DNA of 64,000 nucleotides from an uncultured Myxococcaceae bacterium (GTDB taxonomy: Bacteria > Myxococcota_A > Polyangia > Polyangiales > Ga0077539), in contig CAYUSB010000042.1 of assembly GCA_964447205.1 (NCBI GenBank), positions 1,503-65,502 of the forward strand, written 5' to 3'. A model generated the notes under the pieces. That model did no database searches and was not told the DNA's origin. It worked only from the letters and a program-made list of their open reading frames with translations. Positions 3,906-61,389 of this stretch are shown in pieces; positions within the stretch are counted from its first letter, which is position 1, and each line of letters opens with the position of its first letter. A program made the translations under genes and the position numbers.

Positions 3906-3927
3906 CCCGTCACCGCCGGGTGACGGG
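3906..3927. promoter_or_regulatory. Perfect 9-bp inverted repeat CCCGTCACC-gccg-GGTGACGGG, about 110 bp upstream of the fas start
   Basis: The palindrome is read directly from the sequence and sits in the 290-bp intergenic region ahead of the FAS-I gene. That it is an operator for a fas regulator (by analogy to TetR-type FasR in mycobacteria) is inference only. Confidence 0.25.
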
Positions 3928-4034
3928 TTGCGCAGACTCTCCCCCTTCCTCTATCAGCGCGTCCGCGCGCCCTCTCCGTCGCGACGTCCCGATGCGCGGG
4001 GTGTCGCGCTCTCCTGCGCGCCGCGGAGCGTTCG

Positions 4035-7000
4035 ATGCGTTCGTCGGAAGTCTCGCCCCCTTTGGCCGATCGCCCCCATGGACCGCGAGACCCCGCCGAG
4101 TCGCGGCACTACACCGCCCGGGCCGCGGCCCCGCCGCTCTTCGCCGCCCTCCGTACGCACGAGGCCCGCGTCGCGATCGTCTTCGGGGGTCAGGGGGCTC
4201 CGTGGCTCCCAGCCCTGCGCGAGCTCCACGGGGCGCATCTGTCGGTGCGGGCCCTCGTGCGCGGGGCCACCGAGCGGCTCCGGGCCTCGGCCTCCGATCC
4301 CCGCCTCGGGGCCCTGGCCACCCCCGCCCGGGGCTTCGACCTCGCCCGCTGGATCGACGACCCCGCCGCGGCCCCGCCCGACGACGTGCTCTCGAGCTCC
4401 CTCGTCTCGCAAGCCGGGATCTTCCTCACCTCCGTAGCCCGATCGCTGGCCATGGCCGAGCGGGGGTTCGACCTCGACACGCTTGCCGCACGGGCCACCG
4501 CGGCCACGGGTCACTCCCAGGGCATCATGGCCGCCCTCCTCTTCGCCGAAGGACACGGCCCCGAGGCCCTCGTACGGCGGGCCGGGGAGTTTGCGAGCTA
4601 CTTCTTCTGGCAGGGCTACCGGATGCAGGAGTCGTTCGTGCGGGCGGCCGTGGCCCCGGCCGTACGGGCCGCCGCGGAGCAGGCCGGGATCGGCGACCCC
4701 ACCCCCATGGCCGCCGTGGCCGGCATGAACCACGCCCTCCTGACCGAGGCCCTCGGCCGTTTTCACGCGGCCAACCCGCAGCTCCCGCCCCTCGACGTCT
4801 CGCTCGACAACGGGTACGCCCGCAAGGTCCTGTCGGGCCCTCCGCCCTCTCTCGTGGCCTTCGCCCGGTCGCTCGCCGCGGCCCGTACGGCCGAGATCGC
4901 CGACTTCGCCAGAGGGCGGCTCGGTCGGCGCCCGATCGAGTTCGTTTGGGAGTTTGTGGCCGCGTCGGCCCCCTTCCACTCGCGGTACATGGACTACGGC
5001 CGCCGGGCCCTGCCCGACGACCTCGCCCGCGAGGGCATTCGTTTCGACCCCGGGGCCCTGGGCCTGCCCGTCCTCGGCAACGACGGGGGCGACCTGCGGT
5101 CCTTCGCCGACGGACCGAGCCTTCTCGACGCCCTGCTGCGCATGCAGTTTGTCGAACCCATGCGCTGGCCCGCGGTCTGCGCGGCCCTGCGTGAGAGCCA
5201 CCCCGCGGGGATCACCCACGTCCTCGACTACGGCCCCGGCGACGCCGTGGCCCGGCTCACGGCCCTCAACTGCCGGGGGTTCGGGGTGCATGTGTTTCCG
5301 CTGGCCACCGAGGCCGGGCGGCGCGAGGTCTCGCTCCCGGTGCCTGAGCTTCCCCGGGGCGTGGACTACCGTCGGTTCGCCCCGACCCTGCGGCGCACCG
5401 CGGCCGGCGAGGTGGTCCTCGACAACGCCTTCCGCCGCTTCACGGGCCGGGCTCCCATCTTCCTCCCCGGGATGACCCCCACCACCACCGAGGCCCCCCT
5501 CGTGGCCGCCGCGGCCAACGCGGGCTTCGTGAGCGAGCTCGCAGGCGGAGGCCAGGTGACCGAACGCCACCTCCGGCTGCGGGCCAAGGAGCTGTCCGAA
5601 TCCCTCGCCCCCGGGGCCGCCTACGTCGTCAACCTCCTCTACCTCGACCCCTACCTCTGGAACCTCCACTGGAAGGGCGAAGGCCTCGTGCGCCGCCTCC
5701 GGGCCGAGGGGCACCCCATCGAGGGGATCACCGTCTCCGCGGGGGTTCCGGACCTGGCCGAGGCCCGCGAGATCGTCGAGGCCTGCCGGGCCGCGGGGAT
5801 CGGGCTCGTGTCGTTCAAACCCGGGACCACGAAGCAGATCCAGGCCGTCCTGGAGATCGCCCGGGCCTGCCCCGAGCTCACCCTCGGAGTGCAGGTCGAG
5901 GGAGGCAAGGCCGGGGGCCACCACTCCTGGGAAGACCTCCGCGACCTCGTCCGCACGAGCTACCACCAGGTCCGGGCCCTGCCCAATGTCGTGCTCTCGG
6001 TCGGCGGGGGGATTCGTACGGAGGCCGACGCCTGGGAGTGGCTGAGCGGGCGCTGGAGCGAGCGCCTCGGCCTCGCCCCGATGCCCGTCGACGCGGTCTT
6101 CGTCGGGACCCTCGCCATGGTGGCCCGCGAGGCCTGCACCTCCCCCTCCGTCAAAGCCCTCCTCGCCCGCACCGAAGGCACGGAAGCCTGGGTGGCCCAC
6201 GGAGCGACCCGGGGCGGCATGACCAGCGGCAAGAGCCAGCTCGACGCCGACATCCACTACGTCGACAACACCGCCGCGCGGGTGGGCAAGATGCTTGACG
6301 AGGTCGCGGGAGACCCCGCCGCGGTCGTCGCCCGCAAGGACGAGATCGTGGCCGCCCTGGCCCGCACCGCCAAGCCCTACTTCGGCGCGCTCACGGAGAT
6401 GACCCACGCCGCCGTGCTCCGTCGTGCGGTCGACCTCATGGCCATCGGCCGCGGGACGGACTACGACGACGGACCCTGGCCCGACCCCTCGTACCGCCAG
6501 CGGGTCTTCGACCTCGCGGCCCGCTTCGAGGAGACCCTCTGCCCCGCCCCGGGTCCATCGCTCCTCGGGGGCCTCGACGACCTCGACGACCCGGGCGCCT
6601 TCGTAGCCCGGTTTGTGGCCCGGTACCCCGAGGCCGAGCGGGTCACCCTCTCGCAGTCCGACGCCGACTTCTTCGTGCACCGGGTGTGCGCCCGCCCTGG
6701 GAAACCTGTCAATTTCGTCCCCGCCCTCGATGGCGACGTACGCCGCTGGTATAAGTCCGACGCCCTGTGGCAGTCGCACGACGACCGCTACGACGCCGAC
6801 CAGGTCCTCGTGATCCCCGGCCCCGAGGCCGTCCAGGGGATCACCGCCGTCGACGAGCCCATCGGGGCCATGCTCGGCCGCTTCGTGGCCTACGGGGTCG
6901 ACCAGCTCCTGGCCGCAGGACACACCCCCGCAGACCCCGTCGACCGCACCGCAGACGCCGAGCTGGACCGGGCCGCCGCCGCCCTCGGCCTCTCTCTCGG

Positions 7001-10000
7001 ACGCGACCCCGACGGGATCACCGCCGAGGCCCCCGCGGGACCGGCCTTCCAGACTCCCTCCGAGGCCGCCGTGGGCGCGTGGCTCGACGCCCTCGACCCC
7101 GTGGTCCTCGGCCCCCTGGCCCGGGCCCGGGGGCTTCTGCGCGGCCGTTCGCTCGGCCCCAACCCCCTCGCCCGCATGCTCCGGGTCGAACCCGGCGACC
7201 GATGGACCCTGCTCCGCGACGACACCCGCGGGGTCACCGCGGTCAAGGTCCGACGGGCCTCGGGGCACGCCGTCGAGTGCACCCTCGGACGGGCCGACAA
7301 CATCGGCCGCTGCGACGTGACCCTCGTGCACGCCCTGCCCGCCGACCGACACGGGATGGCCCCCGTGGTGCGGGTGTCCCTCGCGTACGAGCGCGACCTC
7401 GGCCACGAGGCCCGCTTCCCCCGCGACGTCACCCCGGCCCGCGAGGCCGCCCTCGGAGATTTCTACCGCGCGGCCATGGTGGGCGAGGCCGACCGGGTCC
7501 CGGCGGGTCACGCGGTTCGGTCGCGGTTCACCCTCGATGCGGACTTCGTGCGGGAGTACGCCCTGGCCTCGGGCGACGCCTCGACGGCCCACCTCGGGGG
7601 ACGGGGACACGCCCACTGCATGCCCCTCAACGCGGCCTTCTCCGCGGCCTTCGCGGCGATCTTCCGCGCGACCTTCGTGCCGGACGTCGACTGGGACCCC
7701 GCCCGCCTCGTGCACCTGACCAACGAGGTTCGGGCCGTGGGCCGGGCCCTTCACGAGGGGGAGACCGTCGAGGTCGAAGCCCGCCTCACCGCCTGGGAAC
7801 CCGTCAAAGGAGGCGTCCGGGCCCGGGTAGCCGCCACCCTGCGCTGCGACGAGGCCGTGCGGGCCACGGTGGTCAGCACCTTCTTCGTGCAGGAAGCCCG
7901 CGGGACGTACCGCTTCCGCGACGAAGACCTCACCTTCGCCCTGCCCCCGGGCGACCCCGCCCGCTTCGACCTCCTCGCGGAAAAGCCCTGGCTCCGGGTC
8001 TCTGAGGGCGCCGCGATCGACCCCGATCTCGCCCACACCGTGGCCCTGCACCTCGAGACCCGCACCGAAGGCCCCCGGTCCGTCTCGACCGTGACCGGAA
8101 CCCTGCGCGACCCCGCCAGGCGCATCGTCGCCACGATCGATCACACCGAAGACCAGCGCGACGCCGCCGAGACCGAACCTGCCCGCTGGTTCGCCCATTT
8201 CGCCCCGATCTCCGACCCGGCCGTCCCCCTCCCCCAGCCCTCCATCCCCCACGTCGAGCGGGCCTTCGCCCCCTGGAACCTCCTCGAATTCGCCCGGGCC
8301 TCCCGCGACGCCAACCCCCTGCACCGCGACGCTCACGTAGCCGCCCTCGCGGGCTTCGACCGACCCATCGTACACGGCCAGTGGACGGCAGCCCGGGCCG
8401 TAGCCGCCGCCGTCACGGGCTTCGCGGCCACCGACGGAGAGCGGGTTCGGGCCATCACGGTGAACTTCACCGACACGGTCTTCCCCGGCGACGAGGTCGA
8501 GTTTCGGGCCCGCCACACGGCCATGCACGACGGCGACCTCGTGGTCGAGATCGAAGCCCGGGCCCTCGACGGGGGCGACGGCCGGCTCGCCCTGCGCGGA
8601 ACGGTCCGCATCGCGGCCCCGCGTACGGCCTACGTCTTCCCGGGTCAGGGGGTTCAGGCGACCGGGATGGGCATGGAGGGCTACGCCCGCTCCCCGGCAG
8701 CCCGCAGGGTGTGGGACGAGGCCGACGCCCTCTGCCGCGACACCCTGGGCTTCTCGCTCCTCACGGTCGTACGCGACAACCCCGTCGAGATGCGGGTCGG
8801 GCCCGAGATCCTGCGGCACGACCAGGGGGTCTTGTTCCTCACGCAGTTTACCCAGGTGGCCATGGCCGTCCTGGCCATCGCCCAGGTGGCCGAGCTCCGG
8901 GAGGCGGGGTGTTTCCAGGCCGAGGCCATGTTCTGCGGGCACTCCGTGGGCGAGTACTCGGCCATCGGGGCCGTCACCGACGCTCTGTCCCTCGCCGCCG
9001 TGGTCGAGTGCGTCTACCAGCGCGGACTCACCATGCAGACCTTCGTGCCCCGCGACGCCCAGGGCCGGTCGCCCTACCGCATGGCCGTGGTCCGCCCCAA
9101 CCTCGTCGGGCTCACCGAGTCTGCCCTCAGCGCCCTCGTGGCCCAGATCGCTCTCGACACCGGGATGCTCTGCGAGGTGGTCAACCTCAACATCCGCGGG
9201 CGCCAGTACTCCGTGGTGGGACACATCCCCGCCCTCGACCTCCTCCGGGCCCGCCTCGCCGAACGCGCCTCCCCCGGGGCCAAACCCGCCTACCTCGAGG
9301 TCCCGGGCATCGACGTGCCCTTCCACTCGGCGGCCCTGCGCTCGGGGGTCGCGGCCTTCCGCACGAAGCTCGACGCGTACATGCCCCCCGACCTCGACCT
9401 CCGGGCCCTCGTGGGCCGGTACATCCCCAACCTCGTGGCCCGCCCCTTCGCCCTCACCCGCGACTACCTCGACGCCGTGGCCGAGTGCACCGGGTCGCCC
9501 GTCCTGGCCGACCTGCAAACCCGCTGGAACTCCGCGGGATATGCCCCCGATGACCTCGGGCGGACCGTCTTCATCGAAGGCCTCGCGTATCAGTTCGCCT
9601 CGCCCGTCCGCTGGATCGAGACCCAGGACATCGTGCTCGCCCGCGACCGCTCGGGGGTCTCTCGGGTCATCGAGATCGGCCTCGGGGCGGCCCCCACCCA
9701 GGCCAACATGTTTCGGGCCACCCTGGCCGCCGACCCCTCCCGGCTCGATCCGCCCGCCGTGTACAACCTCGAAGCCGACCGCAAGGCTGTCCTCTCCCTG
9801 CACGACCCCGACGCCCAGGAGGCCCCTTCCGCCCCCCGCGACGCGGCCCCCGAAGCGGAGACCCCCAAGAGCCCCGCCGCGGCCCCTGTGGCCCCTGCTG
9901 CGGCCCGCGGACCCATCTCCGATGCCCCCTTGTCCGTACGCGACGCCCTCGCCACCCTCCTGGCCCTCAAGGCCCGGATCCGGGTCGACGAGGTGCGCCC

Positions 10001-13000
10001 CGAGGAGAGCATCGAGGTCCTCTTCGGCGGAAACTCCTCCAAGCGTAATCAGGTGATGGCCGACCTCGGGGCGGAGTTCGCCGTGGCCGCCATCGACGGG
10101 GCCCACGAGATGGCCTTCCTCGCCCTCGTCGAGGCCGTCGAGCGAGCCACCGGGGGGCGCTACCAGGCCCAGGGCCCCTACCTCCGGGCCCAGATCACCG
10201 CGGCCCTCAAACCCTACGGCCTCAGCCTCCGCGAGGCCCTCGCCGCCTTCACCGCCCGAGGGTTGCCCGAGGGACGTTCGCTCGCCCTCCTCAACCGCGT
10301 GGCCCTGTGGCTCCGCCCGGGTGACTCCACCCGGGCCGGAACCCTCTCCCCCGTCCCTCCGCCCAAACCCGGGGATCGTGGAGCCGCGGCCCAGTGGCTC
10401 GACGCCGCCCTCGCCCGCTACGCCCAGGACGAGGGCCTCGCCCTCGGGGGCCCGGCCGAAAGCTCCGGCTCCAACGCCGTCGACGGCGCGGCCCTGGAGA
10501 AGCTCCTGGCCCGGTACTTCGGGGTCGGAGGGGCCTTCCTGGAGACCCTACGGTTCGCCGAGGCCGCCCTCGGCCGCGACGTGTGGGCCGAGCTCGCGGT
10601 GAAGGACACCCCCACGGCCGACGCCGAGCGCCTCCCCCTCTTCGAGGCCGAACACGGCGAGACCTACGAGGGCGCCATCCGCCCGGCCTTTTCGAGCGAC
10701 AAGGCCGTGGTCTTCGCCGGGGCCTGGGCCTGGTCTCGGCGCGAGGCCCTCGGGCTCTACCACCGCCTCCGGGCGGGAGACACGGCGGGCGTCACCGAGT
10801 CGGTGGGCCGCATCGCCCGCGGGGCCGACGAGGCCACGGCCCGCACGGTGGTGTGGCTACGCGACCGGGCCCAACGCGCGGGAGACGAGGCCACGGGAGC
10901 GGTGTTCGCCGGGCTGCTCGACCGCATCGACCCGCGGGCCCAGCCCCGGGCCGAGAGCGCGGCCGTGCCCCTCGAACCCGCGGTGGAGGTTCTGTCCGAC
11001 GGACGCCTCACCGACTACGAACGCCCCCGCGGAACCCCGTCCCCCCTGGGCCTCGCCGACGAGCTCCTCGCGGGCCACCACGCCCGCCTGCGGGCCCACG
11101 GCCACGAGCCCCGCCCCGAGGTAGAGGCCGTCTACGCCGAGGCCCTGCGCGCCCTTGCGGGGGGTTCGGTGAGCTTCGCCGGGCGTACGGCCCTGGTGAC
11201 CGGGGCCTCCGACCGCTCGATCGCCATCGAGCTGGTGAAGCTCCTCCTGACGGGCGGGGCCCGGGTGGTGGTGACCACCTCGCGGCTCAGTCCCGAGCGG
11301 GTGCGTTTCTACCGCAGGCTCTTTCAAGCCCACGGGGCTCGCGGGGCGGAGCTGGCGGTGGTGCCGTTCAACCAGGGGTCGCGGCAGGACATTCAGGCCC
11401 TCGTGCACTGGCTCGTCTCCACCGAGAAGACCGTCGTGGGCGGAACCCAACGAACCGTCAAAGAACCCTGGCTCATCGACCTCCTCGTTCCCTTCGGGGC
11501 CGTCGGGGAGGAGGCCACTCTCGCAGAGATCTCCGACCGCTCGATGGCCACGCTTCGGGTGCTCCTGTACGGGGTCGAGGCCCTGGTGAGCGAGTGCGCC
11601 CGGGCCTTCTCGCGGCTCCACGTCCGCGAGACCCGAACCCACGTGATCCTGCCCCTGTCGCCCAACCACGGGCAGTTTGGCAACGACGGGCTCTACGGCG
11701 AGGCCAAGGCCGCCCTGGAGACCATGCTCAACCGTTGGGGCTCCGAGCAGGCCGCCTGGGGGCGACACACCTCCGTGGTCGGGGCCCGCATCGGCTGGGT
11801 CCGCGGGACGGGCCTCATGAACGTCAACAACGCCATCGCCCCCGGCCTCGAAGCCCGGGCCGGAGTGCGTACCTTCTCCGCCGCGGAGATGGCCCTGGGG
11901 CTTGGGGCCTGCTGCGTCGACGCCGTCCGCGACCTCGCGGCCGAGGGTCCCCTCGTGGCCGACCTCACCGGCGGCATGGACCGCGTCCGCGACCTCGCCG
12001 GCATCGCCCGAACCCTGCGCGCTGAGCTCATGGCCCAGGTGTCCCGGGCCCGCCGTCTGCACGGCCTTCGTGCCGAGGAGGACCGCGCCCTCGGACGCCG
12101 TCCCCCCGCGGTCCGTCACGTCACTCCGTCGCCGCGGCTCGCGGGGTATTTCGCCTTCCCCGCGCTGCCCTCCCCCGCACGCCGGGCTTCCCTGGCTGCC
12201 CTTCGGGGCCTCGACCTGTCGCGGGTCGTGGTGATCGTAGGCCTCGGCGAGATCGGCCCCTGGGGCGGGTCGCGGCCCCGTTGGTCGATGGAGTCGACGG
12301 GCGAGCTGTCGGTCGAGGCCTGCGTGGAGCTGGCCTGGATGACCGGGCGCATTCGTTACGAGCGCAGCCGGCAGCACGTGGGCTGGATCGACGCGGCCAC
12401 GCGAGAGCCCATCGAGGGTCACACGGTGAAGGCCCGCTACGAGGAGGCCATCACCCGCGACGCGGGGATTCGTCTCGTCGAGCCGACCGACCCGGGGGCC
12501 CTCGACCCCCGCAAGCTCACGGTGTGGGCCGACGTGGCCCTGGAGCAGGACTTTGTGTTCCCGGTGCCGGGACGGGCGGACGGGGAGGCCTTTGTGGCCG
12601 CGGCCGGGGACGGGGCGCGGCTCATCTTCGACCCCGAGCGAGACGGCTGGTTCGTCGTGCGGCGCAAGGGAACGGTGGTGAAGGTGGCCCGGGCCGCCCG
12701 CCTCAACCGCTACGTGGCGGGGCAGATCCCGACGGCCTGGGACCCGGTGCGGTACGGGATCCCCAAGGACCTCGTCGAGCAGGTCGACCGCACGACCCTC
12801 TTCAACCTCATCGCCACGGTGGAGGCCTTCCTCTCGGCCGGCCTCGAACCCGAGGAGTTGTACGAGTACCTCCACCCCGCGGACGTGGGCTCCACGCAGG
12901 GAGCGGGCATCGGCGGGATGCAGAAGCTCCGTCGCCTGTACCTCGACCACACCCTGGACCGCCCCCGTCAGGGCGACGCCCTCCAGGAGACCCTCATCAA

Positions 13001-14378
13001 CGTCACGGCCGCGTGGATCGTGCAGAGCCTCGTCGGCAGCTACGGGCCGATGTCGCACCCGGTGGGGGCCTGCGCCACGGCGGCGGTGTCGATCGAAGAC
13101 GCCGCGGACAAGGTGTTGGGGGGCAAGGCGGCCTTCGTGGTGGCGGGGGGTTTCGACGACTACGGCGAGGAGGGAGCCCTGGGCTTCGCCGACATGGCCG
13201 CGACCTGTGACAGCGACGACATGTTGGCCCGGTCGATCCCCCCGCGGGAGATGTCGCGCCCCAACGACCGCCGCCGCCGCGGCTTCGTCGAGGCCCAGGG
13301 AGGCGGGACGGTGCTCGTCGCCCGGGCCGACCTCGCGGTTCGGATGGGGCTCCCGGTGTATGCGGTGGTGGCCCTGGCCCGGTCGTACGGCGACGGGATC
13401 CATCGCAGCATCCCGGCTCCAGGCCCTGGGGTCATGGCCGTGGCCGCCGAACGACGGGCCCGCCCGGGCGAAACCACCGGCGAGGCCTTGTGCGACCTCG
13501 GGGCAAGGGCTGCGTCGTGGGAGGCCTTCGCGGCCGAGCTCCCGGCCCTCGCGGCGACGCTCGGAGAGGAGCGGGCCGAGGCCCTCGCCCGGAGCGAACG
13601 CCGACGTCTCTTCCACGACTTCGCCGACGGCGACCCGCGGGTGTCCCCGCTGCGACGGGCTCTGGCGACCTATGGGCTCGGCCCCGACGACGTGGCCGCG
13701 GCGTGGAAACACGACACCTCCACCGACGCCAACGACCCCAACGAGAACCGCGTCTACGACCGCATCTTCCGCTGGCTCGGCCGCTCCCCGGGGAACCCCC
13801 TCGTAGCCGTCTCGCAGAAGGCCCTGACGGGTCACTCCAAGGGCGGGGCTGCGGCGTGGCAGGTGGCGGGTCTGTGCCAGGCCTTGTCCGCGGGCATCCT
13901 GCCGGGCAACCCCAACCTCGACGACCCCGACCCCACGATGCGGGCGTTTGAGACGATGTGTTTCACCGACGCCCCGCTGGCCCTTGGGCCGGATGGATTC
14001 GAGGCGGGCATGGTGACCTCCCTGGGGTTTGGCCACGTGGGCGGGGTCGTGTGCCTCGTGCATCCGGACCGGGTTCTCGGGGCCCTCGACGACGGGGCCT
14101 TTGCCCGCTACGGGGAGGCCCGGGCGGCCCGGGAGCGTCAGCGCCTGCGCGACGAGCTGGCGGTGTACGAGGGGACGCGGCCTGCGGTTCGGATTCGGAC
14201 GGAGAAGGCGTTTGTGGTTCCGGCCGACCCGCAGTATGCGGGGCTCGATGCGGAGCAGGCGGTGCTGCTCGACGCGGCCTCGCGGCGCCTGACCCCGGGC
14301 GGACCCATCGTCGCGGGCGGGGTAGCCGCGGCCTTCCTTCCTCCTGAGGCCCCTGTGGCTTCACCGCCGGATTTCTGA
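4035..14378 (+). CDS. fas: Type I fatty acid synthase, single 3447-aa chain with fungal/CMN-bacterial domain order AT - ER (FMN TIM-barrel) - DH - MPT - ACP - KR - KS
   Basis: The order is read directly from the motifs. There is an N-terminal acyltransferase GHSQG, then an enoyl reductase block (FLPGMTPTT...GGGQVTE...GGKAGGHHSWEDL), a hot-dog dehydratase (PLHRDAHVAALAGFDRPIVHGQW), a second transferase GHSVGEYSA, an ACP (FGGNSSKRNQVMADLGAEF), a KR Rossmann segment (VTGASDRSIAIELVKLLLTGGARVVVTTS), and a KS with active-site Cys (HPVGACATAAVSIEDA). From memory it is collinear with M. tuberculosis/Corynebacterium FAS-I. A GGAG lies 7 nt upstream of the ATG. Confidence 0.9.
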   Translation: MRSSEVSPPLADRPHGPRDPAESRHYTARAAAPPLFAALRTHEARVAIVFGGQGAPWLPALRELHGAHLSVRALVRGATERLRASASDPRLGALATPARGFDLARWIDDPAAAPPDDVLSSSLVSQAGIFLTSVARSLAMAERGFDLDTLAARATAATGHSQGIMAALLFAEGHGPEALVRRAGEFASYFFWQGYRMQESFVRAAVAPAVRAAAEQAGIGDPTPMAAVAGMNHALLTEALGRFHAANPQLPPLDVSLDNGYARKVLSGPPPSLVAFARSLAAARTAEIADFARGRLGRRPIEFVWEFVAASAPFHSRYMDYGRRALPDDLAREGIRFDPGALGLPVLGNDGGDLRSFADGPSLLDALLRMQFVEPMRWPAVCAALRESHPAGITHVLDYGPGDAVARLTALNCRGFGVHVFPLATEAGRREVSLPVPELPRGVDYRRFAPTLRRTAAGEVVLDNAFRRFTGRAPIFLPGMTPTTTEAPLVAAAANAGFVSELAGGGQVTERHLRLRAKELSESLAPGAAYVVNLLYLDPYLWNLHWKGEGLVRRLRAEGHPIEGITVSAGVPDLAEAREIVEACRAAGIGLVSFKPGTTKQIQAVLEIARACPELTLGVQVEGGKAGGHHSWEDLRDLVRTSYHQVRALPNVVLSVGGGIRTEADAWEWLSGRWSERLGLAPMPVDAVFVGTLAMVAREACTSPSVKALLARTEGTEAWVAHGATRGGMTSGKSQLDADIHYVDNTAARVGKMLDEVAGDPAAVVARKDEIVAALARTAKPYFGALTEMTHAAVLRRAVDLMAIGRGTDYDDGPWPDPSYRQRVFDLAARFEETLCPAPGPSLLGGLDDLDDPGAFVARFVARYPEAERVTLSQSDADFFVHRVCARPGKPVNFVPALDGDVRRWYKSDALWQSHDDRYDADQVLVIPGPEAVQGITAVDEPIGAMLGRFVAYGVDQLLAAGHTPADPVDRTADAELDRAAAALGLSLGRDPDGITAEAPAGPAFQTPSEAAVGAWLDALDPVVLGPLARARGLLRGRSLGPNPLARMLRVEPGDRWTLLRDDTRGVTAVKVRRASGHAVECTLGRADNIGRCDVTLVHALPADRHGMAPVVRVSLAYERDLGHEARFPRDVTPAREAALGDFYRAAMVGEADRVPAGHAVRSRFTLDADFVREYALASGDASTAHLGGRGHAHCMPLNAAFSAAFAAIFRATFVPDVDWDPARLVHLTNEVRAVGRALHEGETVEVEARLTAWEPVKGGVRARVAATLRCDEAVRATVVSTFFVQEARGTYRFRDEDLTFALPPGDPARFDLLAEKPWLRVSEGAAIDPDLAHTVALHLETRTEGPRSVSTVTGTLRDPARRIVATIDHTEDQRDAAETEPARWFAHFAPISDPAVPLPQPSIPHVERAFAPWNLLEFARASRDANPLHRDAHVAALAGFDRPIVHGQWTAARAVAAAVTGFAATDGERVRAITVNFTDTVFPGDEVEFRARHTAMHDGDLVVEIEARALDGGDGRLALRGTVRIAAPRTAYVFPGQGVQATGMGMEGYARSPAARRVWDEADALCRDTLGFSLLTVVRDNPVEMRVGPEILRHDQGVLFLTQFTQVAMAVLAIAQVAELREAGCFQAEAMFCGHSVGEYSAIGAVTDALSLAAVVECVYQRGLTMQTFVPRDAQGRSPYRMAVVRPNLVGLTESALSALVAQIALDTGMLCEVVNLNIRGRQYSVVGHIPALDLLRARLAERASPGAKPAYLEVPGIDVPFHSAALRSGVAAFRTKLDAYMPPDLDLRALVGRYIPNLVARPFALTRDYLDAVAECTGSPVLADLQTRWNSAGYAPDDLGRTVFIEGLAYQFASPVRWIETQDIVLARDRSGVSRVIEIGLGAAPTQANMFRATLAADPSRLDPPAVYNLEADRKAVLSLHDPDAQEAPSAPRDAAPEAETPKSPAAAPVAPAAARGPISDAPLSVRDALATLLALKARIRVDEVRPEESIEVLFGGNSSKRNQVMADLGAEFAVAAIDGAHEMAFLALVEAVERATGGRYQAQGPYLRAQITAALKPYGLSLREALAAFTARGLPEGRSLALLNRVALWLRPGDSTRAGTLSPVPPPKPGDRGAAAQWLDAALARYAQDEGLALGGPAESSGSNAVDGAALEKLLARYFGVGGAFLETLRFAEAALGRDVWAELAVKDTPTADAERLPLFEAEHGETYEGAIRPAFSSDKAVVFAGAWAWSRREALGLYHRLRAGDTAGVTESVGRIARGADEATARTVVWLRDRAQRAGDEATGAVFAGLLDRIDPRAQPRAESAAVPLEPAVEVLSDGRLTDYERPRGTPSPLGLADELLAGHHARLRAHGHEPRPEVEAVYAEALRALAGGSVSFAGRTALVTGASDRSIAIELVKLLLTGGARVVVTTSRLSPERVRFYRRLFQAHGARGAELAVVPFNQGSRQDIQALVHWLVSTEKTVVGGTQRTVKEPWLIDLLVPFGAVGEEATLAEISDRSMATLRVLLYGVEALVSECARAFSRLHVRETRTHVILPLSPNHGQFGNDGLYGEAKAALETMLNRWGSEQAAWGRHTSVVGARIGWVRGTGLMNVNNAIAPGLEARAGVRTFSAAEMALGLGACCVDAVRDLAAEGPLVADLTGGMDRVRDLAGIARTLRAELMAQVSRARRLHGLRAEEDRALGRRPPAVRHVTPSPRLAGYFAFPALPSPARRASLAALRGLDLSRVVVIVGLGEIGPWGGSRPRWSMESTGELSVEACVELAWMTGRIRYERSRQHVGWIDAATREPIEGHTVKARYEEAITRDAGIRLVEPTDPGALDPRKLTVWADVALEQDFVFPVPGRADGEAFVAAAGDGARLIFDPERDGWFVVRRKGTVVKVARAARLNRYVAGQIPTAWDPVRYGIPKDLVEQVDRTTLFNLIATVEAFLSAGLEPEELYEYLHPADVGSTQGAGIGGMQKLRRLYLDHTLDRPRQGDALQETLINVTAAWIVQSLVGSYGPMSHPVGACATAAVSIEDAADKVLGGKAAFVVAGGFDDYGEEGALGFADMAATCDSDDMLARSIPPREMSRPNDRRRRGFVEAQGGGTVLVARADLAVRMGLPVYAVVALARSYGDGIHRSIPAPGPGVMAVAAERRARPGETTGEALCDLGARAASWEAFAAELPALAATLGEERAEALARSERRRLFHDFADGDPRVSPLRRALATYGLGPDDVAAAWKHDTSTDANDPNENRVYDRIFRWLGRSPGNPLVAVSQKALTGHSKGGAAAWQVAGLCQALSAGILPGNPNLDDPDPTMRAFETMCFTDAPLALGPDGFEAGMVTSLGFGHVGGVVCLVHPDRVLGALDDGAFARYGEARAARERQRLRDELAVYEGTRPAVRIRTEKAFVVPADPQYAGLDAEQAVLLDAASRRLTPGGPIVAGGVAAAFLPPEAPVASPPDF

Positions 14379-14384
14379 GCTGCC

Positions 14385-14786
14385 ATGATCGTTGGCATCG
14401 GCCTCGACACCGTCGACCGCGGGCGCTTCGAGCTCCTCCTGCACGAGCCTGGGAGCGCCTTCGCGGCCCGCACCTTCACCCCGGGCGAGCGCCACGCTGC
14501 CGCGGGGCGTCCGTCGGGCGATCCCGTGCGTCACCTCGCGGCCCGTTATGCTGCGAAGGAGGCGTGCGTGAAGGCCCTGTCGCAGTCGCTGGCTCCGGGG
14601 CCGCTGCCGGTGGCCCTGGCCGACCTCGCCGAGATCGAGGTGGTGTGCGACGACGACCACCGCCCGTCGCTGGCCCTGCACGGCCGGATGCGGGCCCTCG
14701 CGGAGCAGGCCGGGATCACGGCCCTGCACGTCTCGCTCAGCCACGACGGGCCCGTGGCCACGGCGATGGTCGTCGCGGAGCGCTGA
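14385..14786 (+). CDS. acpS: Holo-[acyl-carrier-protein] synthase (4'-phosphopantetheinyl transferase, AcpS type)
   Basis: 133 aa beginning MIVGIGLDTVDRGRFELLL and continuing ...YAAKEACVKAL, the AcpS family signature. It starts 7 bp after the fas stop, the same fas-acpS arrangement found in Corynebacteriales. Confidence 0.85.
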   Translation: MIVGIGLDTVDRGRFELLLHEPGSAFAARTFTPGERHAAAGRPSGDPVRHLAARYAAKEACVKALSQSLAPGPLPVALADLAEIEVVCDDDHRPSLALHGRMRALAEQAGITALHVSLSHDGPVATAMVVAER

Positions 14787-14789
14787 GGT

Positions 14790-14891
14790 TCGGCGCTGCA
14801 ACAGGCTGCGGGCGACGGGCTGCGGGCGACGGGCTGCGGGCAGCGGGCTGGGGGCGACAGGCTGCGGGCTGGGGGCGACAGGCTGCGGGCT
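14790..14891. repeat. G-rich tandem repeats (about seven copies of GGGCGACGGGCTGC-like 14-mers) immediately 5' of MITE copy 1
   Basis: Read directly from the sequence. Similar G-rich short tandem repeats (GGGCGAC/GAGGGCG units) precede the other three MITE copies at about 19570-19623, 30030-30057 and 39343-39389. Confidence 0.5.
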
Positions 14892-15055
14892 GCGAAACCG
14901 CAAGGGCGCAAGGGTCGCAAGGGCCAGAAGGGTTTGTGGGTCGGAGGGCGGCGTGCCCCCCCTCGTTGGCGGCGCACCGCACACGCGCCGCGCTGCACCT
15001 GCTCGATACCACCCCGCAGGTTCGGCCCTTGCGACCCTCGCGCCCTTGCGGTTTC
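14892..15055. repeat. Miniature inverted-repeat element, copy 1 (164 bp): 35-bp terminal inverted repeats GCGAAACCGCAAGGGCGCAAGGGTCGCAAGGGCCAG ... CTGGCCCTTGCGACCCTCGCGCCCTTGCGGTTTC
   Basis: The two arms are exact or near-exact reverse complements of each other. The element lies in the intergenic region after acpS. Further copies are at 19624-19837, 30058-30242 and 39390-39562. Confidence 0.6.
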
Positions 15056-15169
15056 TTTCTCTCCAGCCTCCCGCGCGCGTCCTGTCCTGCAATGAGGGAG
15101 AAACCTCGGTGCGGATGCATCCCGCGCAGACAGCGTTACATTCCAACGCGTCGCACGGGAGGATCGCCC

Positions 15170-15949
15170 ATGACCTGGAACCTTGACTACGACGCTCCCC
15201 CTGGGTGGAGCACCCAGGCGTTGGGGCCGCTCACGCTCCACGGCTCGCCCGACACGTCGCGGGCTGTGTTCGTGGGGCGGGCGATGTACCAGCGCTTCGA
15301 CGAGGCCCTGGCCGCGGCGGCGGCCCTCTCTCACTCCCTGGGGCTCCAGACCACGGGCGTGATCGCGCCGCCGACCGACACCGTGATCGCAGGGATGCGC
15401 GCGACGTCGGCCTCGTACGCGGGCCTCAACGCCGCGGGCTTCCCCGCCCAGGGGCGCCTCGTCGTGCTCTTTACGCCCTACGGAACGAGCCTCGTGTTCT
15501 TCGGGGTGAGTGACCCCTACGCGGCGGCGGAGGTCGCCGACGTGATCGCCCGCATGGCCGCGTCCACCCGCGCGGGCCCGCCCACCCCTGACCCGACCGC
15601 GGTGCGGGGCCTCGCCGGGCGCTGGGTCTACCACGACGGGAACTTCAACCGCTCGGCCACGGCCACCTCAAACCGCGGGGTCGAGGCGACCCTCCTGCTC
15701 GACGGGAGCGGGGGGTTCCAGTTCGTGTCGAACAGTTGGATGAGCATCGACGTACGCCGCGTGCCCGCGGGCGAGGCCCCCATCGACCTCGGCGGGGCCG
15801 ACTCCTCGCGCAGCGTAAACGACGCCGGGCAGTACACCGTGATCGGCCGCGAGGTGGTGTTCCGCGGCGCCCAGGGGCAGCTCGTGTTGCCCTACTCCCT
15901 CCAGGGCGCGGCCCTCACCCTGGGGACGACCACGTACCTGCGGCAGTAG
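15170..15949 (+). CDS. Hypothetical protein, 259 aa, no signal peptide
   Basis: ATG at 15170 with a GGGAGG Shine-Dalgarno 8 nt upstream, and natural amino-acid composition (MTWNLDYDAPPGWSTQALGP...). I recognised no family. Confidence 0.45.
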   Translation: MTWNLDYDAPPGWSTQALGPLTLHGSPDTSRAVFVGRAMYQRFDEALAAAAALSHSLGLQTTGVIAPPTDTVIAGMRATSASYAGLNAAGFPAQGRLVVLFTPYGTSLVFFGVSDPYAAAEVADVIARMAASTRAGPPTPDPTAVRGLAGRWVYHDGNFNRSATATSNRGVEATLLLDGSGGFQFVSNSWMSIDVRRVPAGEAPIDLGGADSSRSVNDAGQYTVIGREVVFRGAQGQLVLPYSLQGAALTLGTTTYLRQ

Positions 15950-16124
15950 TCGATGGGACCGCGTGGACAGGCGCGGCCGGTCACCACGCCAGGGCCCCCG
16001 TCGGATGCCCTTCGCCCACGGAGCCGGGTCCGCATCCGCGCGGTGGAGAGGCACCGCCCGCGGCCTCCGTCCGGGGACGTGTTGGACAACCGGAGACCAC
16101 AGGGGTACTGCTCCTCCCACTGCC

Positions 16125-17126
16125 ATGCACGCTGCGGTTCGGTCCGGTGCGCTCGTCGGGGGGGCCGTCGGGGTCGCGTTGATCGCCCTGGTCGGGACGC
16201 TGCGCTTCGAGGCCAGCGCGGAGGGGGCAAACTCTCCAGCACCCATGAATCAGCCATGGATCGTCCAGATCCCCACCGAACCGCACGTCAGCTTCCGCCC
16301 GTGGCGCGAGGTGATCGGGGAGCCGTCCCTGTCGTCGTGCGAGCGGTCGGACGTCCCCGATCGGAGCAGCTCCACCACCTGCTCGCGAATGCTCGGCGCT
16401 CTCTCTCTCATCGACCACAGCCACGGCTCTAGCGGCGGAACATTTCGCTGGCTCATGCTGGGGCATCCGACGCGGTCCGTTGGGCAGTGCGAGCTCTCTT
16501 CGATCGGCCATCAGCGGCTCGGCTCACACTCCCCCCCGTTCTCGTGGAGCCGCAGCGGAGACCTGCTCTACGCGCACGACCCGCGCCGCGACCTGCACGG
16601 CTACCGCTGCGTGGCATCGACCGAGCGGGGGCCGGTCACGGAGTGGACGCTGTGGATCTACGCGCCCGACGCCGAGAGGCTGCGCGGGTTGAGCGACGTG
16701 TGGAGCGCGTCGCGACCGCTGGTCCCGTACGCACGCCTCGCGGCCGCGCTCCTGCTCGTCTGCGCGACGATCATCATGGCCCGCCAGGTGCGGCGCGACC
16801 GTCTCGACGCGCTCCCCTGGCGGGAGGCAAAACGCGGCGCAGATGGTGTGTTGCGGCTCGGGGAGGACGTCGTGCAGACCCCTACCGCGGACGCCGCCGT
16901 GACAAAGGCCGACGCGGTGTGCGTGGTGGTCGCCGACGAGCAGGACAGCGGGATCTATCGGACCGCGGCGACCGTCACGGCCGTCCGGGTTCGGGTCGGA
17001 TCACACGACGTGCACCAACGGGCAGGTCGGTGGGCGCGTCGCAGGAGCGCGGTCGTCGCAGTGGCGCTCGCTGCGGCGTCGGTCGCGGCGTCGGCGTGGC
17101 TGATCGTGCTGTCGCTGCGCCGGTAG
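16125..17126 (+). CDS. Secreted/membrane-anchored protein, paralogue A: N-terminal signal/TM, variable Cys-containing ectodomain, near-identical C-terminal half with a C-terminal TM
   Basis: MHAAVRSGALVGGAVGVALIALVGTL... is a paralogue of 18298..19323. The two are about 95% or more identical from SWSRSGDLLYAHDP to the end and divergent between residues ~30-150, with four conserved Cys. Confidence 0.5.
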   Translation: MHAAVRSGALVGGAVGVALIALVGTLRFEASAEGANSPAPMNQPWIVQIPTEPHVSFRPWREVIGEPSLSSCERSDVPDRSSSTTCSRMLGALSLIDHSHGSSGGTFRWLMLGHPTRSVGQCELSSIGHQRLGSHSPPFSWSRSGDLLYAHDPRRDLHGYRCVASTERGPVTEWTLWIYAPDAERLRGLSDVWSASRPLVPYARLAAALLLVCATIIMARQVRRDRLDALPWREAKRGADGVLRLGEDVVQTPTADAAVTKADAVCVVVADEQDSGIYRTAATVTAVRVRVGSHDVHQRAGRWARRRSAVVAVALAAASVAASAWLIVLSLRR

Positions 17127-17465
17127 GCTGCGCCCCCCGGGGGCCGTCTTGGCGCATCGTCGCGGGGGTCAGCGTTGACATCGAGCGCGCAGACAACGGC
17201 AACGGGCGCGCAGCGAGGGGAGTGGTCAACCGTGCCCACCGCCGGCTTCGCCTCGCGGTACGGACGGAGGCGTGCACCGACGGAGAGCTGCACGGACCGC
17301 GGCGGGACCACGACGCTGGGGACGGCATCGGCCCGCCCCCGTCCCCCGTCGCGGGCCTCCCGCAGCCGGGCGGCTGCTCGACGCTGGGGCAAGCGCGTGC
17401 TGGCTCGGCGGTCTGCGTGTGAGCCGAGTGGCCTCCGCGCCGACTGGGATGGTAGCCTTTGTGGC

Positions 17466-17708
17466 ATGAGCTCCGCCGCTCCTGTCCTCCCCTCCATTGA
17501 CCTCGAGGCCGTGCGCGACGCCCTCCGCCCGATCCCCGGCATCACCGAGGTGCGCCTCGTCGGCGCCGACCTCTGGATCATTCGGGACGAGGTCGACGTG
17601 GCGCGCGACTACCAGATCAGCCACGCGCTCGGCGACCTCGTCGAGGACTACCAGACCGTGACCGCCGCGCGCCGCAGGATGGTGCCAGAGGGGCTCCGTG
17701 TCCTCTGA
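17466..17708 (+). CDS. Small hypothetical protein (~80 aa); its stop overlaps the start of the next gene by 11 bp
   Basis: MSSAAPVLPSIDLEAVRDALRPIPGITEVRLVGADLWIIRDEVDVARDYQISHALGDLVEDYQTV... has natural composition. It lies between the two paralogue copies. Confidence 0.35.
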   Translation: MSSAAPVLPSIDLEAVRDALRPIPGITEVRLVGADLWIIRDEVDVARDYQISHALGDLVEDYQTVTAARRRMVPEGLRVL

Positions 17709-18099
17709 CCGAGAACTCACGATCGAGGACCATCTGCGCCTCGCCGAAGAGCTCTTCGCGCTCGCTGCGTGGGGCGCTGCCGCGCGACCCGACGACGGGC
17801 TCGCCGTGGGATGGGCGGTGACGCAGGTATTCTACGCGGCGGTGCACGGTCTGTCGGCCTGCGTCCTCGCGCGCCACGGCGTCCGCGCCCCGGCGCATCA
17901 GGACCGCGGCCGTTGGTTCGCAGAGTACCCCGAGTTCCGCAAGAGCGAGGCCTGGGACTATCGCGGGTTGAAACGGGCGAGTGAGGAGTCGCGCTACCAG
18001 GGCGTCCCCTACACCGCCGCGCAGTACGCCGCGCACCGCACGACCGCGGAGCGCCTGTTGGCGCACTGGGCGGCGATGGCGCGAAGGGGCCGAGGATGA
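17698..18099 (+). CDS. Small hypothetical protein (133 aa), translationally coupled to the preceding gene
   Basis: MSSDRELTIEDHLRLAEELFALAAWGAAARPDDGLAVGWAVTQVFYAAVHGLSACVLARHG... is helical with natural composition. I could not establish a convincing HEPN or other motif. Confidence 0.4.
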   Translation: MSSDRELTIEDHLRLAEELFALAAWGAAARPDDGLAVGWAVTQVFYAAVHGLSACVLARHGVRAPAHQDRGRWFAEYPEFRKSEAWDYRGLKRASEESRYQGVPYTAAQYAAHRTTAERLLAHWAAMARRGRG

Positions 18100-18297
18100 G
18101 GGGTCGGGACGCAGCATGGCAGGCTGGTCGTGCCCACCGAACAGAACGCCTGGGTGCGGCAGGTGCTCGGCCCAGAGCGCGTCGCCCTCTGTCCGAGCCT
18201 TCGGCGCCGATCCTGACGTGCCAGCAGGGCTCCGCGGCCCCGCCCGGGGACGCGTTGGACAACCGGAGACCGCGGGAGTACTGGTCATCCCACTGCC

Positions 18298-19323
18298 ATG
18301 CACGCTGCGGTTCGGTCCAGTGCGCTCGTCTGGGGGGCCGTCGGGGTCGCGTTGATCGCCCTGGTCGGGACGCTGCGCTTCGAGGCCAACGCGGAGGGGG
18401 CGACCTCACCAATGATCGCGGATCGCGCGAGGCTCTCCGAGGCGCCCGCTGGAGCGCAGATCAACTTCCGCTCGTGGCGTGAGGTGATCGGGGAGCCGCC
18501 CCCATCCTCGTGCGAGAGTCGGCAGTTCGGCGGCTCGGCAGCCTATTCCGGCGGCTCCAGGACGTGCCAACGGGCGCTCGGCGTGCTCCATCTCGTCGAC
18601 GACGACGTGAGCTCCGGCGGATCCCGGGGCGGCAGCAGCTCTCGCACGATCACGCTGGAAAGCGCGACGCCGTTGTTGGGCCGGTGTGAGGTGTCCGCTA
18701 GCGGCCACGATTACAGCACCCCTGCCCCCTACCCGAGTTCGTGGAGCCGCAGCGGGGACCTGCTCTACGCGCACGACCCGCACCGCGACCTGCACGGCTA
18801 CCGCTGCGTGGCATCGACCGAGCGGGGGCCGGTCACTCAATGGACGCTGTGGATCTACGCGCCAGACGCCGAAACGTTGCGCGGGTTGAGAGACGTGTGG
18901 AAGACATCGCGTCCGCTCGTGCCCTACGCGCGCCTCGCGGCCGCGCTCCTGCTCGTCTGCGCGACGGTCGTCGTGGCCCGCCAAGCGCGGCGCGACCGAC
19001 TCGACGCGCTCCCCTGGCAGGAGGCGAAGCGCGGCGCGGATGGTGTGTTGCGGCTCGGGGAGGACGTTGTGCAGACCCCAACCGCGGACGCCGCCGTGAC
19101 GAAGGCCGACGCGGTGTGCGTGGTGGTCGCCGACGAGCAGGACAGCGGGATCTATCGGACCGCGGCGACCGTCACGGCCGTCCGGGTTCGGGTCGGATCA
19201 CACGACGTGCACCAACGGGCAGGTCGGTGGGCGCGTCGCAGGAGCGCGGTCGTCGCGGTGGCGCTCGCTGCGGCGTCGGTCGCATCGTCGGCGTGGCTGA
19301 TCGTGCTGTCGCTGCGCCGGTAG
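18298..19323 (+). CDS. Secreted/membrane-anchored protein, paralogue B (tandem duplicate of 16125..17126)
   Basis: MHAAVRSSALVWGAVGVALIALVGTL... The C-terminal ~200 aa are nearly identical to paralogue A. About 40 bp of the 5' flank and about 250 bp of the 3' flank are also duplicated. Confidence 0.5.
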   Translation: MHAAVRSSALVWGAVGVALIALVGTLRFEANAEGATSPMIADRARLSEAPAGAQINFRSWREVIGEPPPSSCESRQFGGSAAYSGGSRTCQRALGVLHLVDDDVSSGGSRGGSSSRTITLESATPLLGRCEVSASGHDYSTPAPYPSSWSRSGDLLYAHDPHRDLHGYRCVASTERGPVTQWTLWIYAPDAETLRGLRDVWKTSRPLVPYARLAAALLLVCATVVVARQARRDRLDALPWQEAKRGADGVLRLGEDVVQTPTADAAVTKADAVCVVVADEQDSGIYRTAATVTAVRVRVGSHDVHQRAGRWARRRSAVVAVALAAASVASSAWLIVLSLRR

Positions 19324-19623
19324 GCTGCGCCCCGGAGGGGCTGTCCTGCCGCATCATCCAGGCTGTCGGCGTTGGCACCGAGCGCGCAGACGACCGCTGC
19401 GAGTGCGCGCAGTGAGGGGAGTGGTCAACCGTCCCCACCGCCGGCTTCGCCTCGCGGTACTGACGGAGGCGGGCACCGACGGAGAGCGGCACGGTCCGCA
19501 GCGGGAGCACGAGGTTGGGGACGGCGTAGGCCCGCGCAACACCGCCCACCCAACGGCCTCCGACCCCAATAGGCGACGAACGGCGGGCTGCGAGCGGCGG
19601 GCTGGGGCGACGGGCTGCGGGCT

Positions 19624-35927: not shown

Positions 35928-36095
35928 GTACGCCTTGCCGACCCAATACCGAAGACGATGACGGTCCACCTGGGCAATACCCTCCGTAAGCTCCCCGGGT
36001 ACCAACACCCGCCCTCGGGCGCAAGACCCCGCGGCACCTTTCGCCCCGTGGGTGGTATAGGACCTCCCCCTCTCTCCCGGAGCTCGACCCCCCCA

Positions 36096-57112: not shown

Positions 57113-57131
57113 CGTGGATCTCCGGAGGCCC

Positions 57132-59609
<2,478 letters not shown>

Positions 59610-59685
59610 CGCGGGGGAGGATACCCGATTCGCGCGCAGGGGTGGCGACGGAGGGGCCCCCGAGGATACACTCCCCTGTCGCTCC

Positions 59686-61389
<1,704 letters not shown>

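Follow-up and report, generated by a model that had tools for sequence, protein, structure and literature searches.

The 64,000-nucleotide stretch of DNA analyzed here (the window) is a section of a 74.5-kb metagenome contig (ENA ERZ27284381, k139_400128) from an uncultured myxobacterium. On its forward strand it encodes a single-chain microbial type I fatty acid synthase (FAS-I; gene fas, 4035..14378) and, right behind it, an AcpS-type (group I) 4'-phosphopantetheinyl transferase (PPTase; gene acpS, 14385..14786). We observed that the fas frame runs unbroken from its ATG start across 3447 codons to a TGA stop at 14376-14378, after which a 6-nt spacer leads to the ATG of acpS, a second open reading frame (ORF) of 133 codons that is recognized by both Pfam and NCBIfam; the two genes are probably co-transcribed. 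The domain order along the synthase is acetyl transferase (AT), followed by enoyl reductase (ER), dehydratase (DH), then malonyl/palmitoyl transferase (MPT) and acyl carrier protein (ACP), and lastly ketoreductase (KR) and ketosynthase (KS). A first-pass annotation, made from the letters of the window, had described just such a 3447-residue polypeptide with an AcpS-type gene directly downstream, had put it at about 380 residues longer than the Mycobacterium tuberculosis enzyme and had considered it native in composition. Each of these statements is borne out: the difference from an enzyme of M. tuberculosis length is 378 residues (3447 against 3069), the GC fraction of fas is 0.734, and its codon choice is indistinguishable from that of the other window genes when these are pooled (r = 0.99). 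The identical protein with the same neighbors was recovered from two assemblies, ENA ERZ27284381 (k139_400128) and the Logan assembly of SRR8863431.

We placed the domains with Pfam and read their catalytic motifs from an alignment of the window protein with 34 diverse members of the family (35 sequences). The AT (4179..4892, aa 49-286; Pfam SAT) bears a GHSQG motif with Ser161 that is invariant across this alignment. It is followed by the ER region (5886..6875, aa 618-947; Pfam Fas1-AflB-like_hel, 307.7 bits), a flavin mononucleotide (FMN)-type TIM-barrel enoyl reductase with a family-specific helical part and a conserved GGHHS motif at about aa 627-631. The DH region (7524..8555, aa 1164-1507) combines the Pfam families FAS1_DH_region (aa 1164-1261) and MaoC_dehydratas (aa 1411-1507), and its hydratase motif, D1425-x-N-P-L-H1430, falls in a conserved column. 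Next come the MPT (8631..9248, aa 1533-1738; Pfam Acyl_transf), with GHSVG and Ser1637, and the ACP (9921..10445, aa 1963-2137; Pfam Fas_alpha_ACP), in which the phosphopantetheine attachment site is Ser2001 of a GGNS motif with conserved G-x-S. Between the FAS_I_H family (aa 2194-2332; Pfam) and the KS lies the KR (11172..12134, about aa 2380-2700), located by PDB alignment to the Rossmann fold of the fungal and M. tuberculosis KR domains and by an invariant YxxxK motif at aa 2554-2558 (Tyr2554, Lys2558). The KS itself (12705..13919, aa 2891-3295; Pfam) carries Cys3013, His3226 and His3267, and the chain reaches 16 residues past the C-terminus of a Mycobacteriales representative. Thus, the catalytic signatures of all seven domains are present, each in a column conserved among the 35 sequences, and all four FAS-I scaffold families (Fas1-AflB-like helical, FAS1_DH_region, Fas_alpha_ACP and FAS_I_H) exceed their Pfam gathering thresholds.

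A sequence search of the PDB returned as the best solved structures the FAS-I of M. smegmatis and M. tuberculosis (~1860 bits), followed by fungal alpha subunits (~880 bits) and beta subunits (~620-730 bits), with free-standing FabF at <80 bits. Conversely, models for polyketide synthases (PKS) and polyunsaturated fatty acid (PUFA) synthases score far under their cut-offs (PfaA 48 against 1010 bits, PKS_plus_SDR 66 against 1740, Pks13 40 against 2100), and the module order of type I PKS and Pfa synthases, with KS and AT in front, was not seen, the order in the window being that of FAS-I. A position inside the PKS or PUFA synthases, which the first-pass annotation had named as a finding that would refute it, is contradicted by both observations. 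Pfam detects no phosphopantetheinyl transferase (PPT) domain in the fas chain. The best PDB matches of the separate AcpS are the mycobacterial AcpS, the PPTase of the Corynebacterium ammoniagenes FAS and the PPT domain of the fungal FAS alpha subunit; therefore, the window AcpS is the unfused counterpart of that domain. Full-length orthologues with an undisrupted frame and 65-82% identity occur in many genomes, and this, together with the intact motifs, argues that fas is under constraint rather than a relic. On the evidence of its sequence, we conclude that fas, together with acpS, is a real, intact and native member of the microbial FAS-I family.

Segments beyond the mycobacterial length

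When aligned to the 3069-residue Mycobacteriales representative (P0167), the window enzyme shows a surplus of 389 aligned residues spread over ~13 places. The largest are an 86-residue segment in the DH region (7914..8171, aa 1294-1379), a 68-residue segment before the KR (10959..11162, aa 2309-2376), a 56-residue insertion embedded in the KS (13470..13637, aa 3146-3201), predicted to form a pair of long helices, and a 45-residue segment after the ER (aa 979-1023). At the DH, pre-KR and KS positions P0167 has 6, 5 and 0 residues, respectively. The window enzyme is 378 residues longer than the mycobacterial type because the latter lacks these three segments and others. Across the 35 representatives, the other Myxococcota clades have most of the segments, as do Solirubrobacterales, Leptospira, clade A, the bacterial protein P0168 and eukaryotes; they are missing in enzymes of the Mycobacteriales/Microthrix type, and some also in Candidatus Uabimicrobium. 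Hence, the proposal of the first-pass annotation that the extra length reflects insertions or linkers does not hold, as the segments are mostly family-wide and shared with fungal and protist FAS. As the extra residues are not lineage-specific insertions, it is the mycobacterial enzyme that would represent the reduced form. The simplest explanation is a secondary loss in mycobacteria, since Solirubrobacterales retain the DH and pre-KR segments and share one fully supported clade with the Mycobacteriales.

The three largest segments differ in their spread. The DH segment is absent in the Mycobacteriales/Microthrix type and Uabimicrobium, but most of the remaining bacterial clades have it, and so does eukaryotic FAS; a motif L..KPW[LF] within it is common to Patulibacter, P0168, a chytrid and Cyanophora. 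A PDB sequence search with this segment alone gave no match. The pre-KR segment is found in nearly all lineages except Mycobacteriales/Microthrix and P0134, with the motif P-x-x-P-x-v-x-i-x-x-d-G-x-l-x-y-x-E-x-p-R, and its last 25 residues align to the helix that precedes the KR in the fungal alpha subunit. The KS insertion was seen in the window clade, clade F, P0168 and eukaryotes, with a partial copy in a Leptospiraceae-like protein. It aligns to the insertion at residues 1434-1517 of the yeast alpha subunit (its C-terminal part to 1496-1517), where the M. tuberculosis enzyme has 4 residues. In an AlphaFold model of the KS region as a monomer (aa 2750-3447, 698 residues; pLDDT 90.3, pTM 0.89), the insertion folds into two long helices, for which pLDDT is about 94-98. 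The best fold matches of this model are fungal alpha subunits (TMq 0.83-0.84 over 695-720 columns, 36% identity), as against TMq 0.74-0.78 (642-683 columns, 41-43% identity) for mycobacterial FAS. We therefore read the KS insertion as homologous to the yeast alpha insertion. It probably corresponds by position to the KS-embedded dimerization module of the fungal enzyme, the exact module being our assumption. The fungal counterparts are longer, with 120-158 residues before the KR and 68-83 in the KS. In the account of Fischer et al. (PMC6972935), the elements DM2, DM4 and TM are unevenly distributed and listed as late additions.

Relatives, phylogenetic position and host

A scan covering one genome per GTDB species identified fas orthologues of 65-82% identity in 15 Myxococcota species represented by metagenome-assembled genomes (MAGs), variously labeled Polyangiales, Myxococcales, Myxococcaceae, Bradymonadia, Deltaproteobacteria or Myxococcota. 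Examples of such genomes are JAXLYI01, JAEUKH01, JADJAE01, JAXLYG01 and SCUS01. To judge by their isolate names, lakes, a reservoir and activated sludge appear to be the sources of several of these MAGs. Two chromosomes of Candidatus Uabimicrobium (Planctomycetota) also carry a copy, at 38-39% identity. Going further afield, an exhaustive, profile-free search with fas residues 1-1200 yielded, at E <= 1e-30, 429 clusters formed at 50% identity, among them dozens of full-length single-chain proteins of 2900-3700 residues; a search for homologues of the DH region returned no match at E <= 1e-20. The carriers that could be named include the actinobacterial Mycobacteriales (P0167), Microthrixaceae (P0187) and Solirubrobacteraceae and Patulibacter (P0156, P0160); the cultured spirochaete Leptospira kmetyi (P0194) and Leptospirales MAGs (P0172); and further MAG lineages labeled Myxococcota or Deltaproteobacteria (P0204, P0164; fragments P0005, P0008, P0011, P0017). 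Eukaryotic carriers are a chytrid fungus (P0209) and the glaucophyte Cyanophora (P0236). The latter protein, a 4016-residue single-chain microbial-type FAS-I of Cyanophora paradoxa from EukProt, extends the eukaryotic range beyond fungi. NCBI labels many of the bacterial homologues 'DUF1729 domain-containing protein' or 'type I polyketide synthase'. Our literature search found no report of a non-actinobacterial bacterial FAS-I in Myxococcota, Uabimicrobium or Deltaproteobacteria, although papers beyond its reach may exist, and the literature on myxobacteria retrieved in the FAS-I context deals with PUFA synthases. Thus, the range of FAS-I is much wider than the literature's "only CMN (Corynebacterium-Mycobacterium-Nocardia) bacteria", and the bacterial lineage to which the window enzyme belongs is undescribed in the searchable literature.

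We built a neighbor-joining tree of 82 full-length proteins from 2687 alignment columns, with Kimura-corrected distances, 200 bootstraps and midpoint rooting. In it the window enzyme and all Myxococcota MAG orthologues form one clade with 100% bootstrap, whereas every representative labeled Actinomycetota (Mycobacteriales, Microthrixaceae, Solirubrobacterales) falls in a separate clade, likewise with 100%. Under midpoint rooting, the sister group (82%) of the window clade comprises clade F (with P0164 and P0134, among others), clade H, which contains Myxococcota-labeled fragments, as well as the actinobacterial clade. Pairwise, the window enzyme shares 39.4% identity with the Mycobacteriales representative, 38.1% with that of Uabimicrobium and 43-45% with members of clades F and H. 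The eukaryotic enzymes make up a third clade with 100% bootstrap, with the bacterial P0168 at its base. As placed by this tree, the window enzyme is a deep, unstudied, non-actinobacterial branch of bacterial FAS-I. As the window clade lies outside the fully supported clade of labeled Actinomycetota, a recent import from mycolate actinobacteria is contradicted. The first-pass annotation had called the enzyme 'mycobacterial-style', which is right insofar as it is a true FAS-I and misleading as a label for a protein of this identity and placement; its other suggestion, of an unrecognized lineage of bacterial FAS-I in a myxobacterial genome, is upheld by the tree and by the host evidence given below. 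Beside this, we note P0168, a 3662-residue FAS-I with the FAS_meander family (8001-19415 of locus L022, GCA_040960375.1). Its genes are compactly arranged in a bacterial context that includes a separate acpS, and among bacterial proteins it may be the one most closely related to eukaryotic FAS.

Set against the systems already characterized, the window enzyme shares with mycobacterial FAS-I (M. tuberculosis Rv2524c, M. smegmatis; PDB 6gjc, 4v8v, 4v8l) the single chain, the domain order, the catalytic motifs and a separate acpS immediately downstream. For M. tuberculosis FAS-I, joint expression with AcpS in Escherichia coli has been reported (cited in PMC6155276). It differs in sequence and placement, and in having a Gram-negative Myxococcota host with no known mycolic-acid pathway; neither the compact CMN form of about 3000-3100 residues nor an actinobacterial host fits it. 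The fungal FAS (Saccharomyces cerevisiae Fas1/Fas2, Thermomyces lanuginosus; PDB 2uv8, 4v58) has the same order once beta and alpha subunits are joined, and, like it, the window enzyme has the DH-region, pre-KR and KS-embedded segments and a KS model that superposes better on fungal than on mycobacterial structures. Unlike it, the window enzyme is one chain with its PPTase encoded by a separate gene rather than fused, and the eukaryotic enzymes keep to their own clade. The homologues from L. kmetyi, Candidatus Uabimicrobium amorphum, Patulibacter defluvii, Microthrixaceae and other Myxococcota MAGs have the same single chain and adjacent acpS, but are only 38-45% identical to the window enzyme, belong to separate clades and have different sets of scaffold segments; to our knowledge, none of them has been studied so far.

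The operonic association of fas with acpS is the constant of these neighborhoods: in the synteny check that the first-pass annotation had suggested, the two genes adjoin wherever a related locus includes downstream DNA, in a total of four phyla. They do so in Myxococcota, Uabimicrobium, clade F, the P0168 lineage and L. kmetyi. In nine Myxococcota loci, clade F and L. kmetyi, acpS is directly followed by a gene for a single-chain biotin carboxylase of 1800-2000 residues, giving a three-gene fas-acpS-carboxylase cassette (L004-L008, L010-L012 and L016, at about 20.7-26.2 kb; L020, 18343-23862; L023, 16438-21993). The product combines biotin carboxylase (BC), biotin carboxyl carrier (BCCP), ACC_central and carboxyltransferase domains, and its BC half resembles bacterial carboxylases. 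This linkage in the relatives fits a role of the synthase in bulk, malonyl-CoA-dependent synthesis. Apart from acpS and the carboxylase, no neighbor is conserved among the orthologous loci; no genes for PKS, non-ribosomal peptide synthetases (NRPS) or lipid tailoring flank fas in the window or in these loci, and no type II FAS gene was found on the 74.5-kb contig.

The identity of the host was examined through other genes of the contig. Just outside the window lies a gene for HtpG, and among its best 120 matches all the named ones are from Myxococcota, with 63-69% identity to Myxococcota MAGs and 58-61% to the cultured Cystobacter, Myxococcus and Hyalangium. Within the window, the neighbors include a FadL/Toluene_X outer-membrane protein, an OPT transporter, a SpoIIE phosphatase with Cache and HAMP domains, an FHA-sigma54 activator (39616-41022) and several Ser/Thr kinases, two of which carry RCC1 repeats (54668-59759). 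Because this gene set is incompatible with Actinobacteria, the host is not actinobacterial, and the concern that the contig might prove so is answered by the HtpG matches and the Gram-negative genes alike. Of the hallmarks foreign to Actinobacteria that the first-pass annotation had listed, the FHA-sigma54 activator and the RCC1 kinases stand. Its MYXO-CTERM tail is not confirmed: a scan of seven unannotated ORFs downstream of acpS gave no match in NCBIfam, the library expected to include the MYXO-CTERM model, and the hits of a crude tail-motif scan are antisense artefacts. The window thus comes from an uncultured member of the Myxococcota that has no close relative in culture.

Function, rival explanations and implications

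Taking these lines of evidence together, we consider it highly probable that fas and acpS make up a functional two-gene module native to uncultured Myxococcota, with a synthase that would represent a deep non-actinobacterial branch of FAS-I retaining scaffold segments of the fungal type. We infer its enzymatic activity, oligomeric state and product chain length by homology to the characterized mycobacterial and fungal enzymes, and on the same basis, with high confidence, the steps of the mechanism. AcpS would move 4'-phosphopantetheine from CoA onto Ser2001 of the ACP, and the holo-synthase would form a homo-hexameric barrel. The AT would load acetyl-CoA and the MPT malonyl-CoA; elongation would then proceed through the KS (Cys3013/His3226/His3267), the KR (Tyr2554/Lys2558, with NADPH), the DH (Asp1425/His1430) and the FMN-dependent ER, and the MPT would release the product as long-chain acyl-CoA.

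It is a distinct possibility, if not the one we favor, that this is a specialized secondary FAS-I beside an ordinary type II system, supplying a particular acyl-CoA pool (storage lipids, unusual membrane lipids or the starter of a natural product, in the manner of fungal HexA/HexB or the second FAS of Corynebacterium) rather than acting as the main housekeeping synthase. Cultured myxobacteria make fatty acids, including iso-branched products, by a type II FAS; moreover, the gene is found in a subset of Myxococcota lineages, and its neighborhood beyond acpS is unconserved, as expected of an accessory module. Nevertheless, the lack of PKS, NRPS and lipid-tailoring genes beside fas speaks against such a specialization, as do the coupling to a carboxylase in many relatives, suggestive of bulk synthesis, and an architecture that is that of a complete de novo synthase. 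That the protein is no FAS in function, but an iterative synthase of the polyketide or PUFA type or an inactive relic sharing FAS-I domains, appears improbable. The NCBI labels of several homologues would be in keeping with it, but the PKS and PUFA model scores, the domain order with its FAS-specific scaffold families and the full reductive set of KR, DH and ER with intact motifs all identify a microbial FAS-I, and the strong conservation along all 3447 residues in many genomes is not that of a relic.

Least probable by far, and in our view largely refuted, is a recent horizontal gain from a mycolate actinobacterium, or a mis-assembled or mis-binned actinobacterial fragment. Although the closest solved structures are mycobacterial and high-GC actinobacteria would show a similar composition, the identity to the Mycobacteriales representative is a mere 39%, the window clade lies outside that of the labeled Actinomycetota, and segments missing from the mycobacterial type are still present in the enzyme. 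Moreover, the same protein and neighbors recur in two assemblies, a Myxococcota HtpG and Gram-negative genes lie on the same contig, orthologues occur in fifteen independently binned Myxococcota MAGs, and the codon use matches that of the remainder of the window. Certain observations do weigh against our preferred reading of a native, deeply branching Myxococcota module. The tree is based on corrected p-distances and not on maximum likelihood, with several deep nodes at 44-82% support. About one-third of 30 representatives could be named, several clades being anonymous, and as neither Corynebacterium nor Bifidobacterium enzymes were recognized among them, 'outside Actinomycetota' refers to the labeled lineages only. 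The KS insertion is patchy in distribution, so that several losses or transfer are both possible. Finally, the window is without the carboxylase gene carried by relatives, which is also missing from L009, the closest full-length relative, from L014 and L015, and from Uabimicrobium.

The native Myxococcota module and its relatives show that the textbook distribution of FAS-I in fungi and bacteria of the tuberculosis group is wrong: the enzyme is intact and diversified in Myxococcota, is found also in cultured Leptospira, a planctomycete and non-mycolate actinobacteria, and in many of these carries segments that have been regarded as fungal additions. Such proteins offer structural biology natural intermediates between the 1.9-MDa mycobacterial and the 2.6-MDa fungal barrels, and they change the choice of outgroup for reconstructing FAS evolution. 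They also raise the physiological question of why a Gram-negative predator lineage would keep an acyl-CoA-releasing megasynthase beside or instead of a type II FAS. The main value of the finding is evolutionary and structural; it does not reveal new chemistry. More speculatively, and with the chances rather against it, one might posit that the scaffold-rich Myxococcota type and its unnamed sister clades represent the ancestral bacterial FAS-I, that the 'fungal' elements predate eukaryotes, that the fas-acpS(-carboxylase) unit is mobile, and that the lineage of P0168 is nearest to the eukaryotic donor. If so, the DH segment, the element before the KR and the paired helices of the KS would be older than eukaryotes and would have been lost toward mycobacteria; the fas-acpS(-carboxylase) unit would be a self-sufficient cassette for cytosolic-style fatty acid synthesis that moved among Myxococcota, Spirochaetota, Planctomycetota and Actinomycetota; and, among living lineages, one such as P0168 would be most closely related to the donor of eukaryotic FAS.

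Upstream element and other features of the window

Upstream of fas, the 9-bp palindrome reported in the first-pass annotation does exist: it is an inverted repeat with perfect 9-nt arms, CCCGTCACC-GCCG-GGTGACGGG (3906..3927), which ends 108 nt before the fas ATG. It lies inside the sole upstream block that is conserved with the two closest loci (L003 and L009), in both of which its right arm is degenerate and the core CACC-N4/5-GGTG is kept; the block is absent upstream of more distant orthologues. At least one repeat of such quality arises in about 9-10% of shuffled intergenic regions. Being perfect in the window only, expected by chance at that rate and partially conserved in two relatives, the palindrome was rejected as strong evidence of regulation; it is possibly an operator or promoter-proximal site. 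A consensus scan upstream of fas detected neither a sigma-70-like promoter nor a terminator. On visual inspection, a TTGCRC hexamer (3931-3936 in the window) appears 4 nt after the palindrome and a T-A-rich hexamer 17-18 nt further on, in the three loci. In the clade-F loci, a gene for a TetR-family regulator overlaps the fas start (L020, 7303-8004; L021, 6096-6797), reminiscent of FasR-type control; no TetR gene adjoins fas in the window.

Directly 3' of acpS lies a 14-nt tandem repeat, GGCTGCGGGCGACG, in about 4.7 copies (14804 to 14894). It is followed by a 51-nt inverted repeat (14875-14925 / 15024-15074) with 80% complementarity and a 98-nt loop, which ends in TTTCTTTCTC. The whole (14804-15074) is a possible terminator or intergenic repeat element. 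Farther downstream, two paralogous ORFs (16125-17126 and 18298-19323, both on the forward strand) are 75% identical; in both, the N-terminus is signal-like and the C-terminus is a hydrophobic helix with RR at its end. They have no Pfam or NCBIfam match and may be the source of the MYXO-CTERM tail discussed above.

Two further loci had been taken in the first-pass annotation for mycobacterial in flavor. The supposed AhpE-like protein (35853-36560) is indeed a peroxiredoxin, but it matches the generic AhpC/TSA family, with no mycobacterial signal. The pair of ArsA/Get3-like ATPase genes (25214-27183, reverse strand) had been likened to Rv3679/Rv3680, a likeness not supported by the BagA and BagB models, which score far below cut-off (48 against 400 bits and 26 against 521). 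Scans of the window with Rfam and for tRNAs detected neither rRNA nor tRNA genes nor any further Rfam family, and thus nothing of use for taxonomy. Near its end, a gene with the Transposase_20 domain (the C-terminal domain of the IS110 family; 62282-62959, forward strand; L024, 10842-11519) adjoins a gene for an EF-Tu-like GTPase. The remaining genes of interest are one for an 832-residue protein resembling the major vault protein (30752-33250, reverse strand), which combines the shoulder domain of that protein with Vault_3 repeat domains and an SPFH-like region, and another for a 904-residue fusion of a Ser/Thr kinase with a globin domain and an alpha/beta hydrolase (36627-39341, forward strand); a heme-sensor kinase of this kind would be unusual.

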